This document shows positions 1 to 12,118 of a stretch of 64,000 nucleotides of DNA, in pieces. The notes under the pieces are model-generated. The model worked only from the letters and a program-made list of their open reading frames with translations. It did no database searches and was not told where the DNA came from. Numbering within the stretch: the first letter of the stretch is position 1; every line of letters starts with the position of its first letter. Position numbers and translations under genes: made by a program. Source of the stretch: Longimicrobiales bacterium (GTDB lineage Bacteria > Gemmatimonadota > Gemmatimonadetes > Longimicrobiales > Gaopeijiaceae); NCBI GenBank assembly GCA_965219445.1, contig CBDCNQ010000002.1, forward strand, positions 192,001 to 256,000, given 5' to 3'.

Positions 1-432
1 GCGGGAAGTAGCGCCGGGCGTTCCCGGCCGCTCCCCGATAGACTCGCCGGGGCAGGAGCGGGCGCTCGATGCCGAGCGCCTCGAAGGCGGCCACCTTCTC
101 CAGCTCGGTCCGGAGCCAAGGCAGGCGGGAATGATCAAGCACATAGTCGAGCGAGAGCAGGCGCCGCATCAGCACTTCCGTGGAGGTGATCCGGCGGCGG
201 CGGCGGTTCCCGGCGCCGAGCGCCCGGTAGATCCGGCGCGCGTGGATTCGGCACACTCGACCGATGCCGTCGATGCCGGGCGGATCCTCTTCGACGGCCA
301 CGCCCTGCGCGACGAGGGCGCGGACGGCGCGGCGCACCTTTTCGTGGTGGCAACCCAGAAAGCTCGTCCACTGAGCCCGAGTGAACACGCCGCCATGGAG
401 ACAGGCCAGGGCGATCCATTCGGCACGGCGCC
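1..432 (-). pseudogene. 5'-truncated fragment of a conserved mobile-element hypothetical protein (possible winged-helix), running off the window start
   Basis: Minus-strand frame reads RRAEWIALACLHGGVFTRAQW...VLMRRLLSLDYVLDH...ARRYFP, with no start codon after the upstream TGA; the C-terminal part of what appears to be the same family lies at 28587-29045. Confidence 0.6.
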
Positions 433-520
433 AGCGCTCTTCGCGCGTGAAGTCACTAAAGGGCCACGACGCTCGCCCGACAAGTCACAACTCACTCACA
501 AAATAGCGCGTAGCTTTCCG

Positions 521-554
521 GATAGCTCTCGATAATTGTAGTTATCGAGAGTAA
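521..554. other. lox-like recombination site 1 (34 bp)
   Basis: GATAGCTCTCGATAATTGTAGTTATCGAGAGTAA: 10-bp perfect inverted arms CTCTCGATAA/TTATCGAGAG around asymmetric spacer TTGTAG, 47 bp from the recombinase stop codon. Confidence 0.85.
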
Positions 555-601
555 CCCGCGGCAAGGATTGTGACCAGAGAGGCCCCCGAGTTCTTCGGGG
601 C

Positions 602-1588
602 TCATCTGCGTTTCTGAAGCCGTGCCAGCTGTGCGGCGCCGTTGCGCTTGGCCAGCAGCCGCTCGCCGTAGCGCTGCACCATCTGGGCGTTCTTCCAGCG
701 CCCGGCCTGCATGATCGCCGGGATCCCGATCCCTTTGGCGATCATGTCCTGAGCCGCGCCCACGCGGGGGCTGTGCCCGGAGAGCCGCCGCACGATCTGC
801 TCCGGCAGCCCGGCCCGTTCGGCCATCGCCTTGTAGATGCGCGGCACCTGGCTCTCATGCAGTTGGCCGCCCAGCGTGCCGTCCTTGCGCATCGAACGGA
901 AGAGCGGCCCGCCACTGATCCCGCTCGCGCCCAGCCACTCCGAGAGCAGCCTCACGCTGTCTCGGTGCAGGTAGAGCATCGCGCCGCCGCCCTCCGGATC
1001 GGTCTTCGCGCGGCGCACGAGGAGCGAGGCCGAGCCGCCCCTTTCTATCGTCACATCAACGACTTGCAGCGCGACCAGCTCGGAGCGCCGGAGCATGGCG
1101 TCGTAGGCCACGGCCAGGATCGCGCGGTTCCTGACGTCGATCACCCGGTCGCCCGCGGCCTCCATCAGGCGCCGGCGGAGCGCCCAGGTCAGACCCTGCA
1201 CCTGCCTCTGCCGGCACCCCCTCTGCCGGTGCATCCGCTTCAGCGCCCGCCGCACGGTCACGTGCTCGAGCGGGCTCCGCTCCCCGGCCGCCTTGTGCAC
1301 GGTGGCGACGCTCGAGACGTAGCGCCGCACGGTGGCCGGCGCTCGCTCGCTCGCCATCGCCTCGACGTAGGCCACCACCGTGGCCGCGCGCGCGGGCAGC
1401 GGAGAGAGCCCCCGCTCGGCGCACCACCCCGCGAACCGTTCCAGGTCCGCTCGCACCGCTCGCACGGTATGGCCGCTCAGGGCGCCGCGGGCGTCCTCCA
1501 GGTAGGCGGTCAGGCACTCGCCGGTTTGTGACTTCTGAGTGGCCGGGTCGGGACGGTCGGACACACCTTCTGGGGCCGAAATACGCAT
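602..1588 (-). CDS. Cre-like tyrosine recombinase (328 aa)
   Basis: Motifs RNRAILAVAYDAMLRRSEL, RAKTD, SGHSPRVGAAQDM and IMQAGRWKNAQMVQRY match the Cre pattern (R, K, HxxR, W, Y); SAM-like N-terminus; AGAGGG RBS before ATG. Confidence 0.93.
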   Translation of the reverse strand: MRISAPEGVSDRPDPATQKSQTGECLTAYLEDARGALSGHTVRAVRADLERFAGWCAERGLSPLPARAATVVAYVEAMASERAPATVRRYVSSVATVHKAAGERSPLEHVTVRRALKRMHRQRGCRQRQVQGLTWALRRRLMEAAGDRVIDVRNRAILAVAYDAMLRRSELVALQVVDVTIERGGSASLLVRRAKTDPEGGGAMLYLHRDSVRLLSEWLGASGISGGPLFRSMRKDGTLGGQLHESQVPRIYKAMAERAGLPEQIVRRLSGHSPRVGAAQDMIAKGIGIPAIMQAGRWKNAQMVQRYGERLLAKRNGAAQLARLQKRR

Positions 1589-1624
1589 AAGTGCCCTCTA
1601 CACAATGACATACAGCAAAAAAGT

Positions 1625-1658
1625 TTACTCTCGATAACTACAATTATCGAGAGCTATC
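1625..1658. other. lox-like recombination site 2, exact reverse complement of site 1
   Basis: TTACTCTCGATAACTACAATTATCGAGAGCTATC is the reverse complement of 521-554 over 34/34 bp; 36 bp upstream of the recombinase ATG. Confidence 0.85.
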
Positions 1659-1764
1659 GAGCACGAGGAGTGGGGAAGGTCCACGTGGAAGTGAGGCAGG
1701 CAGCCGAATCAGGGGGTGGTCCGACATCCCTGCCCGACTGTCATTCATCAAAGTGAGAGACAGA

Positions 1765-2715
1765 ATGAACGGTCGAACAGAGATTATCGGGTGCGGCGTG
1801 CGACGAGGTGCGGTCGCGGCCGGCATACTCGCGGCAACAATTGGGTTGCTGGTGGCCTGCTGGGATGGAGGCGGGGACGCCGTCACCGGGCCGGACCCCG
1901 AAGAGTTGGGATCCATTCCGGCTATTCTGCCCATTGCCGCGCGCGCCGAGCACACCAAGGCCTTCGTCAACAACGCCATCAGCCGGTACGAGACCCAGGG
2001 GCTCGATGCTACCCTTGCCCATTACAACCGTGAGGAAAGCGTTGAAGGTGAGTGGTACCTGTTCATCATCAACGGGGACGACCTGGTGATCGGACACCCA
2101 CACCCCCATCGCCGGGGGCAGGACCTGAAGGGCTGGGTCGGGACCGATGCCAACGGGTATGACTTCGGCCCGGAGATGCTATCAGCCGGCGAGGACGGCA
2201 CGTGGGTTTCCTACGTCTATACGAACCCCAAGAACGGCCGCATCGACTCCCCAGATCCCACGGACGTGGAGCTCAAGAGCGCATGGGCGGTGCGGCACGA
2301 CGGGCTACTCTTCGTCTCCGGCTGGTATGTCGACGCCGACGAGTTCACCCAGTACCTGGTGGCCACCGCGGTCCGCATCTTCCGTTTGGCGGGACTGCAA
2401 GCGACCGTGGAAGCCTTCAATGGCCGAGAGAGCGCCACGGCGGGACTGGCAACGACCATCGAATACTACAACAACGCCCCGCACATCGAGGGGGAATGGG
2501 TCGCGTTCATAGCGGACGAAAGCGGCAATATCGTAGATAGCTACCACCCCGCAATGCTGGGAAGGGACCTGCATGACATCTTGGGCACGGATGTGCTCAC
2601 TTTCACCGAAAGCGGCAACTGGATCACCTCAGAGTCCGTGCGCGTCTGGGTGGTCAGCTGGGATGGGTTCGTGTTCGGCGCGGGCTGGCTCCAAGACCCT
2701 AAAACCGGCAGCTGA
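1765..2715 (+). CDS. Stand-alone Cache-domain lipoprotein (two Cache-like repeats)
   Basis: Lipobox-like LLVAC; YLFIIN..VIGHP..GQDL...DANGYDFGPEML and GTWVSYVYTNP..ELKSAWAVRHDGLLFVSGWY are typical of Cache domains; no signalling domain. Confidence 0.7.
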   Translation: MNGRTEIIGCGVRRGAVAAGILAATIGLLVACWDGGGDAVTGPDPEELGSIPAILPIAARAEHTKAFVNNAISRYETQGLDATLAHYNREESVEGEWYLFIINGDDLVIGHPHPHRRGQDLKGWVGTDANGYDFGPEMLSAGEDGTWVSYVYTNPKNGRIDSPDPTDVELKSAWAVRHDGLLFVSGWYVDADEFTQYLVATAVRIFRLAGLQATVEAFNGRESATAGLATTIEYYNNAPHIEGEWVAFIADESGNIVDSYHPAMLGRDLHDILGTDVLTFTESGNWITSESVRVWVVSWDGFVFGAGWLQDPKTGS

Positions 2716-2797
2716 GGGAGGCGACCACTATCCCGGCTGCGCCCAATTACTCACGCCCGGACGTCGCGGACCCTCGCACAAGACACAAGGAGCCCTG

Positions 2798-3628
2798 GTG
2801 ACACGCACTGATAGACAACGACCAACCAGCCTGTTCGACACCATCGTCGCTCTGGCCATGGCGGGCGCCGCGCTCGCCCTGCTCTTCTCCCCGCTCCAGG
2901 CGCAAGATGACACTGTTGCCCCGGAGTTCGTGAGCGCGAGGACCGACGGGGGTTATGTGATCGTTACCTTCAGCGAAGATATCACCGTCAGTCCGCCGGT
3001 GGCATACGCCGTAGAATCGTTGAACGTTCCCATATACCGGTTTTTCAAAGCGGTTATGGACGTGTCCGTGGACGGCCATGACGACGTTCTATCGGACAAT
3101 GACTACATCTCCGGCAACGAGCTCTGGCTGCAACTGACATTCGCTGTATCCGGTCACCAAGAAGTGCGCGTGGCATACGACAACATGTTCGCCGTGGCCG
3201 GGGACGGCATTCTGGTTGACGCCGCCGGGAATGCCGTTCCGCTCTTTTCCTACCAGACGGTCCAGAACGACGCTCGAACTTATCCTCGTCCCGACAGAGC
3301 GCCCGTGTTCGATTTGTCCACGGAAGATATCAGAGTAGCGGAAGGGGACACCGCCACATACACCGTCTCCCTCGTCTCGCAGCCGTCAGAGGACGTTACG
3401 GTCAACGTAAGTCCTTACCAGACCGTGCAGTCAACGCCCTCCAGTTTGACATTCACTCCAGAGAACTGGAACACGCCCCAAACAGTGACGGTGTCCACCT
3501 ACGACGATGATGACTCATTCGATGCCTGGGGAATAGTACGGCACTATGACCGCGACGATTACTCCACCTATTGGCGGGACCTTCGCATCCTCGTAGAAGA
3601 CCAGGACGCTCAAGTCGGCGGCCTCTAA
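2798..3628 (+). CDS. Secreted protein with SwmB-like and Calx-beta-like domains
   Basis: GTG start after AAGGAG; signal peptide ending LQA; APEFVSARTDG..VTFSE, and VAEGDTATYTVSL..QPSEDVTV..SLTFTPENWNTPQTVTV. Confidence 0.6.
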   Translation: MTRTDRQRPTSLFDTIVALAMAGAALALLFSPLQAQDDTVAPEFVSARTDGGYVIVTFSEDITVSPPVAYAVESLNVPIYRFFKAVMDVSVDGHDDVLSDNDYISGNELWLQLTFAVSGHQEVRVAYDNMFAVAGDGILVDAAGNAVPLFSYQTVQNDARTYPRPDRAPVFDLSTEDIRVAEGDTATYTVSLVSQPSEDVTVNVSPYQTVQSTPSSLTFTPENWNTPQTVTVSTYDDDDSFDAWGIVRHYDRDDYSTYWRDLRILVEDQDAQVGGL

Positions 3629-3639
3629 CGGCTATTGCG

Positions 3640-4840
3640 CTGACGTTCGCGCCGGGGGGAGGACGAGAAGACGGTGTCGGTGCCGATCACGGACGACGAC
3701 GTGGAGGACGACGGGGAGACGTTCACGCTGATGCTGAGCAACGCCTCGGGCGCGGGCTTCGCGAACAACGACAACGAGGCGACGGGCACGATCCGGAACA
3801 CCGAGACGACGGCGCGGCCGGACCTGACGGCGTCGTTCGAGGGCATGCCGGCTGAACATCGTGGCGAGGGCGGGTTCCACTTCCGGGTGGCGTTCAGCGA
3901 GGACATCGGGATCAGTTTCCGGGCGTTGCGCGAGGATGCGTTCACGGTGACCGGCGGGCGGGTCACGGGCGGCTCGCGCGTGGACGGCCGGCGCGACCTG
4001 TTCAAGATGACGGTGAGGCCGGACTCGGACGGGGACGTGACGATCACGCTGGCGGCGGGGCGCGAGTGCGCGACGTCCGGTGCGATCTGCACCAAGGGCG
4101 AGAACCGGCGGCAGTTGACCAACAGCCCGTCGGCGACGGTGGCCGGCCCGGTGGGCATCTCCGTGGCGGATGCGCGGGTGGAGGAAGGCGCGGGCGCCAT
4201 GCTCGAGTTCGCGGTCACCTTGAGCCGCGCGGCTGCCGGGCAGGTGACGGTGGACTACCAGACGGTGAACGGTGCGGCGGCGGTGGGGACGGACTACACG
4301 GCGGCGAACGGGACACTGACGTTCCGGGCGGGCGAGTCGTCGAAGACGGTCGAGGTCGCGGTGCTCGACGATTCGCACGACGAGGGCGAGGAGACGATGA
4401 CGCTCCGGCTCTTGCATCCGTCGGAGGGCTGGCTGGCCGACACGGAAGCGACCGGGACGATCGAGAACACCGACCCGCTGCCGCGGGCGCTGTTGGCGCG
4501 GGTCGCGCCCTCGTGGGGCGGTCAGGCGATGAGCGGTGCCGACGCGCTCTGGGGCCGCGATACGATGGAGGGGCTCGGGGCGGCAGGCCCGGGATCGGGC
4601 GACCGCATCGACGCCGAGCTCGGCTACGCGCTGCCGGTCGGGAGTCGGCTGGTGGGGACCCCGAGGTTCGGTGTCACGACTTCCGAGTACGGGCGCGGCT
4701 ACCGGCTGGGCTACAGCCTGGCTGTCGTGCAGGGTGGCGCCATGAGCTTCCAGTTCGGCCTCGACGCCCAGCGCCGCGAGAGTCTGCTTCAGGACAAGCC
4801 GGACCACAGCTTGGTGGGCCGACTCACCGCGCGCTGGTAG
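3640..4840 (+). pseudogene. Internally deleted Calx-beta adhesin with autotransporter-like C-terminal barrel fragment
   Basis: Calx-beta motifs (VPITDDDVEDDGETFTLMLSN; GTDYTAANGTLTFRAGESSKTVEVAVLDD); abrupt fusion near 4495 to a C-terminus ending LTARW; N-terminus missing. Confidence 0.65.
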
Positions 4841-5212
4841 ACGCGGACAGTTCGAGTAGTGTCCCCGGCGCGCCGCGTGTCCTTGCGAGCGTCGTACTCC
4901 GGGCGATGGCCGTCCCGCACACGGTAGGCCAGCGCGGCTTTGTCGCGCGGCCGGCCGCAGGCCCGGTTCGATCCTGCGGTCGAAACATCTCATGGCTCCC
5001 CTGTGGTGTCAGCTTCTAGTCGCGGCCGCCCGCACTGGCCGCCCTGCCGGCATCGATGTCAATGCACCGCACGGTGCAGCCCTTCGCCGCGATCCGTCGG
5101 CCGGCCCTCGACTCACTTAGCACCACCCTCCGAGGCGGCATCCGGTCGCGCTCGGCCACGCGCCGCAGTGCATGAACGGGTCCTCACATGCCGGATCTCG
5201 ACCCCAACTGCC

Positions 5213-5479
5213 ATGGAGACGCTGACGAAGCACTTCGAATCGCGAGTGGATGCATCCCTCGAGCGCACGGGCCTGAAGCCGTCGACGTTCGACCTGCAGG
5301 CGGTGGGCTATCTCAACCCGGTGCGTCAGCTCCGTCCTGGCCGATCACCGAGGCTGGCGATGGCCTGCCAGGTCCCCGTGTTCATCGAAGCCTGCCGCCG
5401 GGCCCAAGTGGCCCCTGTTCCCTCCCGGGGCAACGCGCCCCGGAATTCTTCACCGAACAGAACGGAGGCAGACCGATGA
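5213..5479 (+). CDS. Small Cro/XRE-like HTH protein, probably degenerate
   Basis: METLTKHFESRVDASLERTGLKPSTF...NPVRQLRPGRSPRL; stop overlaps the alpA start (ATGA). Confidence 0.45.
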   Translation: METLTKHFESRVDASLERTGLKPSTFDLQAVGYLNPVRQLRPGRSPRLAMACQVPVFIEACRRAQVAPVPSRGNAPRNSSPNRTEADR

Positions 5480-5703
5480 CCAGAGCAATGGAACAGGGCA
5501 TGGACGCGCCCGCGCGCGTCCTGCGGTTACCTCGAGTGCAGGCCCGCACCGGGCTGGCGCGGAGCACGATCTACGTGCGGGTGGCCGACGGGAGCTTTCC
5601 CCAACCGATCCGGCTAGGCGCGCGCGCCGTCGGCTGGATCGAGTCCGAAGTGGATGCGTGGATCCGAGAACAGATCGCCGCGAGCCGCAGCAGTGCCGAG
5701 TGA
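5476..5703 (+). CDS. alpA: AlpA-family regulator/excisionase
   Basis: VLRLPRVQARTGLARSTIYVRVADGSFPQPIRLGARAVGWIESEVDAWI is a canonical AlpA signature; GGAGG RBS. Confidence 0.92.
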   Translation: MTRAMEQGMDAPARVLRLPRVQARTGLARSTIYVRVADGSFPQPIRLGARAVGWIESEVDAWIREQIAASRSSAE

Positions 5704-6069
5704 TCTGAGACGATAACCATCTGACAGTTCGCGATGCGAGAGGACAGGGGCCATCGACAACCCGCCCTCCCGCAAGGTTCGCTCCTTCGCCGCCTCCGCA
5801 GCAGTTCCCCAATTCGCGTCGACATCGGCGGAATGCGGAGTCGCCCGACTGCCGACGCCAATGGGGGTGACATGGCGCTCAGTGAGGTTGGGTAGGTGTA
5901 AACGTTCGGTCGTGCCGTGGTATTGACGTCCCGCGCTGGCCCTACGGCGTCCGCGCACAACGGCGTCCGATCGCCCGACGACCTGTCGCACGGGTTGCCA
6001 TGGTCGATGGGCGAGGAGCGCAGACGCGACCTCATGGCGTCGGCATTTCCGGTCAGATCGAGTGCCGCA

Positions 6070-10684: not shown

Positions 10685-11957
10685 CTACCCGCTCTGCATG
10701 GCGACGAGGGACCGGAGTCGATCTCCGAGCACTTCCCTATGCTTCTCCACCCGGTATTCCAACACGTCAGACCGATACGGGCTTCCCTGCGCATGGCCGT
10801 AGATCCGGTCGACGAGCTGGCCGCCTCCGTGGCCCATCTCCTTCTGAACCTGGAACCTCGCCACCTCGACGTACTCCCACGCGTCGGGGTCGTCCGGCTC
10901 CCTCCCGGGCTTCAGAATCCTCTGCACCGTCTGGAGTCGTGCCGAGCAGTACGTATGCCGGAAGCGTCGCGTTCGGACCTCGCCGGCCTCCATGCCACTC
11001 AGCCTGGCCGCGGCATCCAGGCTCTTACGAATGTCACGCACCACACCACCACTTGGGGCAGGGAAGAGGAGCCCCGACGTGCGTGGGGTCTCCCCACCGT
11101 ACAGCCAATCCTGGAGGATATCTCGTAACTGGGGCCAGAGCGGAACCGCTCGCACGCTTGTCTGCGCCTTGAGTCCACGGTGCGCGTTTGGTCGGAACCG
11201 AACCAGGCTGCGGTCAAAACTCACGTCGTCAACGTCAAGCCCCATGACCTCAGAGTACCGACCGCCGATCAAGAGGAACGTCGCGACGATGGAATAGAAT
11301 CCGGGCGTGGCGTGCACCCGGTCCTGTGCCTCAAGGACCTTGGATGCCTCAAGGAGCAGAGCAGCTTCTGCCACCTCGAAGAATGCGGCCTCGCTCTTCC
11401 AGCGGCCTGTCGGCTTCTCCTGGAGGGCCGCGACGGGGTTGTAGCCGGGGGCGACGTAGAGCCCCTCTTGCGCTCGTCCATAGAGTCCCGACAGGGCGTT
11501 CAGATAGTGACGCACCGTGCCTGGCTTCCTCTTCCCACCTTCGGAGACGGTCTCACTCCAGGGAGCGCACATCATCGGGGACGATAGAACGTGGGTCGCG
11601 GTCGCGACCAAAGTGCTCCAGCGTCGCACGCAGACGAGACTCCAGGTCGAACATGTGAGAGTCGGACGTTCGAGCGGCCCTGGCCTTCATGAGGAGGTGA
11701 TGGCGAGTGAGTTCAGCGAGCGTCGTGCTCTTCTGTTCCGGGACGCCGACGCGCCCGCGGCGTTTAGCCTTCAACTCCGCGAGCTTCGACTCGAAGAGGA
11801 TCAAAGCGACGTCCTCGTCCGTGGTGCCCCAGCTTGACCCCGCTTGGTTCAGCGCCTCCCGCCCTCCGCCGACGTCGGAGTAAGCTCGAAGGTCGGCGTA
11901 GGCCCGTCCGTTGCGCCAATAGATATGAGGGCCGTTCTTCTTCTTGGGTCGTGCCAT
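10685..11957 (-). pseudogene. Tyrosine integrase, frameshifted or deleted near 11560
   Basis: N-part MARPKKKNGPHIYWRNGRAYADLR in one frame; catalytic part IGGRYSEV..GLK..RRFRHTY..MGH...RIYGH in another. Confidence 0.85.
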
Positions 11958-12118
11958 ATTGCGCCCCACCTCGATGTTGACCTTCAGGTGGCTAGTAGGG
12001 TAGCCTTCGGTCATGGAAATCATGATGGCTGACCAGGGGTTTCGCAACAATTTTTGGCACAGTTTGCAAAATGACCACTTTAAGTAAGTATACGTATATT
12101 GTTGTAAAATAATAACTT

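Follow-up and report, generated by a model that had tools for sequence, protein, structure and literature searches.

What does a recombinase gene do when it is enclosed by its own recombination sites? The question is raised by a 1.1-kb segment of the window (the whole 64,000-nucleotide stretch of Longimicrobiales DNA that was analysed), in which a Cre-like gene lies between two inverted lox-type sites (Table 1). The original prediction for this segment was that the enzyme flips its own gene, as an autoregulatory or phase switch, or else that a minimal mobile unit ends at the two sites. We consider it likely that the cassette is a natural on/off invertible promoter switch for the adjoining surface-protein gene, equipped with its own Cre-type invertase.

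The two repeats are exact reverse complements (100% over 34 nt) and form the longest of the 27 inverted pairs in window positions 1-6000, the runner-up reaching 24 nt at 79%. Both sites consist of perfect 10-bp arms separated by an asymmetric 6-bp spacer and are in inverted orientation. The 34-bp repeat, which measures 32 bp in the second copy described below, sits one base off the 13-8-13 lox register. In that register the spacer is asymmetric, and symmetry holds at 10 of the 13 arm positions. A half-site matrix built from the cassette family, when applied to the 4.56-Mb genome, matched the two window sites and, besides them, only the sites of one further cassette; no lone sites were found in this genome. 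Since only the sites of two cassettes were matched genome-wide, the pair in the window is not a chance occurrence. A terminator-like match at site 2 turned out to be the palindrome of the site itself.

The protein encoded between the sites has the size (300-400 aa) and the R-K-H-R-W-Y residues that define Cre-type enzymes. Of its 18 PDB matches, 17 are to Cre itself or to proteins derived from it (best E 1.6e-28), and the remaining one is XerD (E 4.3e-5). An exact inverted repeat around an intact Cre-like gene is confirmed. Alignment with Cre identified the catalytic residues as R167, K195, H272, R275, W298 and Y307, matching those listed for Cre (PMC10250229). All six are invariant in 46/46 aligned recombinase ORFs from the family; four of the 50 ORFs failed the alignment filter, two being damaged and two being intact frames without an early ATG. 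The Pfam matches place the enzyme outside the Hin/Gin/Cin serine invertases. In the recombinases of loci L052, L064 and L066, the position immediately preceding the catalytic Tyr, an Arg in the other recombinases as a conserved feature, is a Leu. The recombinase leader contains a possible weak promoter of its own, overlapping the site, with a modest consensus score.

Table 1. Features of the cassette and its surroundings in the window.
Feature	Position	Strand	Remarks
Multi-copy hypothetical gene, 5'-truncated copy	1-424	-	Junction at ~425-433; occupies the place of the regulator
Promoter flank P	433-520	+	Same in second copy; four GTCAC-like boxes
-35-like hexamer of divergent regulator promoter	451-456	-	Matching -10 cut off by junction at 433
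-10-like element TAGCTT of promoter P	511-516	+	TAnnnT in most flanks
Site 1, lox-type	522-555	+	Core 526-551, spacer TTGTAG; inverted repeat 521-554
Outward promoter-like site TTGCCG-18-TACAAT	535-564	-	Inside cassette, pointing out through site 1
Cre-family tyrosine recombinase, 328 aa, intact ORF	602-1588	-	Pfam Phage_integrase and Phage_int_SAM_1; PDB matches
Recombinase leader, conserved TAT(G/A)TC motif	1589-1627	-	Motif from ungapped listing
Site 2, lox-type	1624-1657	-	Core 1628-1653, in reverse orientation to site 1; inverted repeat 1625-1658
First cargo gene, Cache-domain protein, signal/lipoprotein-like N-terminus	1753-2715	+	Start GTG 1753 or ATG 1765
Further ORFs with adhesin-type pieces	2573-4840	+	2573-3628 weak LapA; 3674-4840 Calx-beta

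The same genome (G000) carries a second cassette, 98.6% identical over window positions 433-1656 and belonging to an intact copy of the module (C5:1693500-1700200). Sequence identity had been said to stop on both sides of the repeat; it does so on the right, 3 bp past the site core, but on the left it extends 93 bp past the core, to position 433. Beyond this left flank, the second copy has a divergent gene for a 781-aa hybrid regulator (GAF, PAS, HisKA, HATPase, receiver and Trans_reg_C domains), while a protein with LRR and fn3 domains begins ~40 bp past its right site. The two copies share one spacer and could recombine with each other. The concern that one site might be a fold-back artefact of assembly can be dismissed, as both sites are present in the second copy and in 50 of the 54 cassettes described below. 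The start of contig C3 and the end of C5 were considered as two extra copies and rejected: C3:1-6845 and C5:1695575-1702419 overlap over 6845 bp at 99.97% identity and represent a single locus.

In the window, the regulator's place is occupied by the truncated multi-copy gene of Table 1. More than 20 genomic blastn matches to this gene end at window positions 424-430 or earlier, and its paralogues run in frame past the junction. The window copy has lost its regulator gene and kept the boxes of the left flank. The 282-aa remnant gave no match in Pfam or NCBIfam; in Atlas it fell among unnamed clusters (0.91-0.92), with a weak lead (0.85) to replication-relaxation proteins, and small mobile elements of one family may be what the gene represents. 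Elsewhere in the genome, a 3-kb element (G000:C2:184896-187876) is repeated at more than a dozen places with 94-99.7% identity. The window also contains a second, unrelated integrase-family gene, apparently split into two ORFs (10685-12050, minus strand), and an AlpA-family gene near 5500-5700.

Searches for homologues yielded cassettes in 3 of 41 relatives, in 17/401 and 21/401 sampled genomes (overlapping sets), at 14 named loci and at two metagenome loci, one of them too weak for use. The named records belong to Gemmatimonadota, Acidobacteriota, Latescibacterota and Gammaproteobacteria, with 62-93% identity. The protein clusters listed (at least 120) were all at least 70% identical, and the relatives on plasmids and phages were all under 60%. 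Genomes carry up to five copies and the spread is patchy; a marine-sponge habitat is presumed here from the genus name Palauibacter. Once duplicates (L007, L025, L028, L038, repeats within one genome sample) and the weak partials L011 and L027 had been dropped, 54 cassettes were tabulated; three truncated genes were excluded from the recombinase tree.

Homologues could be expected to have the same flanking inverted sites, and 50 of the 54 cassettes do; of the others, three lack their 5' part and one runs into the end of its contig. Within a cassette the two spacers are identical and inverted in 50/50 cases, the expectation from random pairing being 9%. Across cassettes there are 17 spacer types, all asymmetric and some 7 bp long, and paralogues that are 97-98% identical (G779a/b, G368b/c, L013/L014) change both spacers together. 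Such concerted change over 17 types, in cassettes that as kin are not independent, indicates that each pair of sites is kept as partners for recombination. The 7-bp spacer is found at both sites of eight of the 50 cassettes (L071-L074, L076, L079, L119, L120), which fall together in a single clade along with one 6-bp cassette; no residue specific to this clade was found in the aligned recombinases. At L054:10443-10468, an extra lox-type site with a different spacer is found on the cargo side, at a distance of 1.8 kb; it has no adjoining recombinase gene.

If the sites recombine, both orientations of the segment should be encountered. We refer to the arrangement in which the recombinase points towards the left flank P, as in the window, as state A and to the reverse as state B. 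Among the 54 cassettes, 40 are in state A, four in state B by the flank profile (L026 with a weak score) and two more in state B, and eight are without a P flank; L054 and L055 were assigned to state B from the cargo flank alone. The clearest flipped pair is L052 (genome G362) against L066 (G426), where the cassette is reversed exactly between the sites: the flanks are 98.8% identical over 6968 bp on the cargo side and 98.6% over 1538 bp on the regulator side, outside each site the adjoining 40 bases are the same in both loci, and the inner ends have changed places. The same swap is seen, at lower identity, between L026 and L024 and between L068 and L062. A further state-B copy, L064 of G426, is 99.4% identical to a state-A copy of that genome and is cut by the chromosome start. 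State B occurs at three separate places of the recombinase tree.

Both recombinase genes of the best flipped pair are damaged, L066 by a frameshift and L052 by an IS256-type insertion. The latter, an IS256/Mutator-family element with a 9-bp target duplication (L052:8922-10354), lies in the first codons of the gene and probably locks this copy in state B. The damage in several state-B copies and the truncation of L064 could be taken to mean that the flipped copies arose as chimeras during assembly or by homologous recombination as rare accidents, the sites serving as autoregulatory operators only. This seems hardly credible to us, given that state B is found in five assemblies with clean breakpoints and that an operator role needs no matching inverted spacers, yet all 50 pairs have them. 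Orientation was also checked in reads, where four of the 24 listed runs, assembled into short contigs, gave no strand-changing joint; because the 34-bp repeat breaks short contigs in either state, this result says nothing on inversion. Flipping is shown between related assemblies, with breakpoints at the sites, and switching within a population is a separate matter. The prediction that the enzyme flips its own gene is supported by near-identical flanks around both orientations, by the breakpoints and by the spacer pairing, and the segment is very probably inverted by the enzyme that it encodes.

What, then, would inversion switch? A sigma-70 consensus scan of positions 380-1850 gave a sole match, the outward promoter-like site of Table 1, shuffled sequences giving 0.1 +/- 0.3 matches. 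In the window this site faces the regulator side; inversion would turn it to the cargo gene. Over 32 cassettes, the 3' end of the recombinase gene scores above the shuffle mean in the outward direction in 32/32, reaching p<=0.05 individually in 9/32; its score is higher than that at the 5' end in 28 of the 32 and lower in two. The best match starts with TTG in 29/32, and its position varies between subgroups. Two alternatives were discarded: an outward promoter at the 5' end, where just 12/32 cassettes score above the shuffle mean, and a universal -10 box in the spacer, which fits some spacer types only.

The cargo of the cassettes was defined as the longest ORF starting within 700 bp of site 2; 41 ORFs were picked and 30 scanned, giving 31 rows. 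Domains of the fn3, Calx-beta, cadherin-like or SWM type were found in 26 of these rows (one below the curated cut-off), the rest being two hexapeptide-repeat proteins (L020, L037) and three ORFs with no match. Unlike this adhesin-type cargo, the first cargo gene of the window encodes a Cache protein, with a weak Pfam dCache_2 match below the cut-off and an Atlas feature score of 0.94 to Cache clusters. Many cargo ORFs begin less than 50 bp from site 2, which leaves little room for a promoter.

Of the two roles first proposed, we prefer a phase switch to autoregulation alone, given the surface-protein gene next to the cassette and the outward promoter-like site within it. The Cre-type enzyme, whose catalysis is deduced from its family, would recombine the two inverted lox-type sites and flip the 1.1-kb segment, and a promoter at the recombinase 3' end would face the surface-protein gene in state B and point away from it in state A. 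It is fairly likely that the adjoining gene is controlled in this way, with state B as ON. Since the outward promoter-like site faces the cargo only after inversion, the orientation seen in the window is probably OFF.

The flank on the other side suggests how the switch might be set. About 100 bp are conserved here (window 433-520), with tandem 11-bp boxes and a -10-like element, and beside 44 of the 54 cassettes the flank profile gives a score of more than 8 bits. The four GTCAC-like boxes of the window lie at 452, 463, 484 and 495 (spacing 11, 21 and 11), at about -74, -63, -42 and -30 relative to the site core, and can be read as candidate OmpR/PhoB-type tandem sites. A TAnnnT element lies 8-10 bp ahead of the core in 32/34 flanks, and in the window the TAGCTT at this place would fire P into site 1. 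In the opposite direction, a promoter-like pair for the divergent regulator, GTGACN-17-(T/C)AnnnT, is present in 24/34 flanks and absent in the window copy. The geometry recurs at a cassette-free regulator paralogue in G241, where two boxes 11 bp apart are followed, after 10 bp, by the -10.

A complete divergent hybrid regulator, combining a kinase with an OmpR-type DNA-binding domain, stands beside 26 of the 54 cassettes. The domains are arranged in one soluble-looking chain in the order GAF-PAS-HisKA-HATPase-REC-wHTH, and regulator divergence tracks that of the recombinase (Mantel rho 0.79, 25 loci). All 26 cassettes with a complete regulator are in state A, compared with 13 in A and six in B among the 19 without; the Fisher p of 0.003, computed with L020 omitted on account of a regulator cut by a contig end, overstates the link, as the six state-B copies amount to about three lineages. 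Two further hybrid regulators of G000 (C5:21773-24085 and 427993-430299, 60-63% identical) are each divergent from surface-type ORFs, and no cassette or P-profile match was found at either of them. The architecture can do without the regulator, since in eight distant cassettes (58-62% identity) both the P flank and the regulator are missing. The 'minimal' cassette of the original prediction is better described as the middle of a regulator-promoter-cassette-cargo module.

In the intact module, the single-chain sensor-regulator would probably bind the tandem boxes of the outer flank and drive P into the cassette, where P would read the recombinase gene in state B only. Recombinase made in this way would bias the switch back to A, the weakest step of the scheme. 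That an active regulator pushes the switch back to A, making the reset signal-gated, is a tentative proposal to which we give somewhat less than an even chance. The window copy, with its boxes but without a regulator, could be supplied in trans from the second genome copy.

Inversion might also follow another logic, with the cargo ON in state A through read-through from P across the antisense recombinase gene, or with the recombinase mainly switching itself on and off. We regard this alternative as improbable, even with P being the best-conserved promoter-like element and pointing at the cargo in both states: it does not account for the outward promoter-like site at the 3' end of the recombinase gene and would need a 1.1-kb untranslated antisense leader. 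It does gain from the scan of positions 380-1850, in which no U-tract terminator was found on the cargo-ward strand, from the predominance of state A (40 cassettes out of the 46 whose state could be called) and from the cassette-free regulator paralogues, which are likewise divergent from surface-type ORFs.

The cargo leaders (n=44) fall into 20 clusters. In the window, the cassette interior is 95-99% identical to one lineage and the cargo leader comes from another (recombinases 84-89% identical), the change lying 3 bp outside site 2; similar stops of identity near the site were seen at G368b/c, L023/G160a and G779c. Recombination at site 2 would explain the change of leader, as would a gene conversion tract that stopped where homology runs out. 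Together with the copy number, the patchy spread and the occurrence in four phyla at 62-93% identity, these leaders could suggest that the sites are mobile-unit ends or attachment points, used for movement of the module or for cargo swapping, with inversion a by-product. An excisable element, however, should have direct sites and leave lone or empty ones: inverted spacers, the arrangement in all 50 pairs, give inversion and not excision (PMC10250229), conserved sequence continues past site 1 through the regulator, and the own genome has no lone sites. We thus find the mobile-unit reading distinctly improbable and prefer the invertible promoter switch. A wider version of the latter, in which the whole is a portable signal-gated memory module that moves between phyla, is reset to OFF by the signal, acquires new surface-protein genes through recombination at site 2 and has copies insulated by their spacers, is possible but doubtful; different spacers, including the one-base-longer variant, would partly insulate copies within one genome.

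Published Cre-type systems, as presented in the accessible text of PMC4957104 and PMC10250229, have been matched to a site beside the gene and studied as tools. The cassette family points to a native regulatory use of such enzymes, in phase variation of large surface proteins of uncultured bacteria. It opens the question of surface variation in these bacteria and of a two-component-type signal setting the direction of a DNA switch. Orthogonal recombinases might also be developed from it, as the family comprises dozens of natural pairs of enzyme and site that differ in their arms and among which 17 spacers occur.

The cassette resembles Cre/loxP of phage P1 in having a tyrosine recombinase of ~330 aa (~29% identity, same six catalytic residues) beside a 34-bp site that has an asymmetric spacer and fits the 13-8-13 register, though with 10 of 13 arm positions symmetric; 18 of the 34 bases of the window site agree with loxP of record X03453.1. 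Whereas the P1 cre record has one annotated loxP, two inverted sites enclose the gene here, on chromosomes. Relatives of Cre include Dre/rox, VCre, SCre, Vika/vox, Nigri/nox, Panto/pox and the YR series (PMC4957104, PMC10250229). The corresponding pipelines look for a 34-bp site near the gene with up to two arm asymmetries (PMC4957104, PMC10250229); one yields a list of about 500 candidates (PMC10250229), and each Nigri/Panto candidate is assigned one site in the accessible part of PMC4957104. Four plasmid relatives (40-46% identity) had one site or none in a strict scan, which makes them a weak control. Compared with the Cre-type systems, both states occur in the present family and the spacer of one subclade is one base longer. 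No Cre-type self-inverting switch, nor a link of one to a regulator, was found in print, few subscription journals being covered.

In promoter architecture, the P flank recalls PhoB/OmpR promoters, where tandem 11-bp repeats, the binding pattern of PhoB, lie upstream of a -10-like element (PMC4447250); here the repeats lie beside a Trans_reg_C gene. In contrast to PhoB/OmpR, sensor and DNA-binding domains are united in a single chain, and binding is predicted.

In layout, the cassette is akin to the Hin/hix system of Salmonella, where the recombinase gene lies inside an invertible segment of ~1 kb (PMC9368917, PMC5903667), and this enclosure by inverted sites is found in the 50 cassettes with both sites. 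The Hin segment carries a promoter for an adjoining surface-structure gene (PMC9368917, PMC5903667), whereas here there are consensus matches only. Hin is a serine invertase that needs Fis, HU and an enhancer; the present enzyme is a Cre-family tyrosine recombinase acting, presumably, on lox-type sites, and the module differs further from Hin in being multi-copy, spread across phyla and provided with varied cargo and its own hybrid regulator. Tyrosine recombinases also flip promoter segments beside surface genes in fimS, in the C. difficile RecV system and in the invertons of Bacteroidota (PMC5903667, PMC11892184). According to the accessible text of these sources, invertons generally cannot regulate the invertases in their vicinity; the enzyme of such tyrosine-invertase switches usually lies outside the segment, and the repeats are typically 10-20 nt (PMC5903667, PMC11892184). 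The nearest layout is that of a putative 844-bp recombinase-enclosing segment of Providencia stuartii, bounded by 14-bp repeats (PMC5903667).
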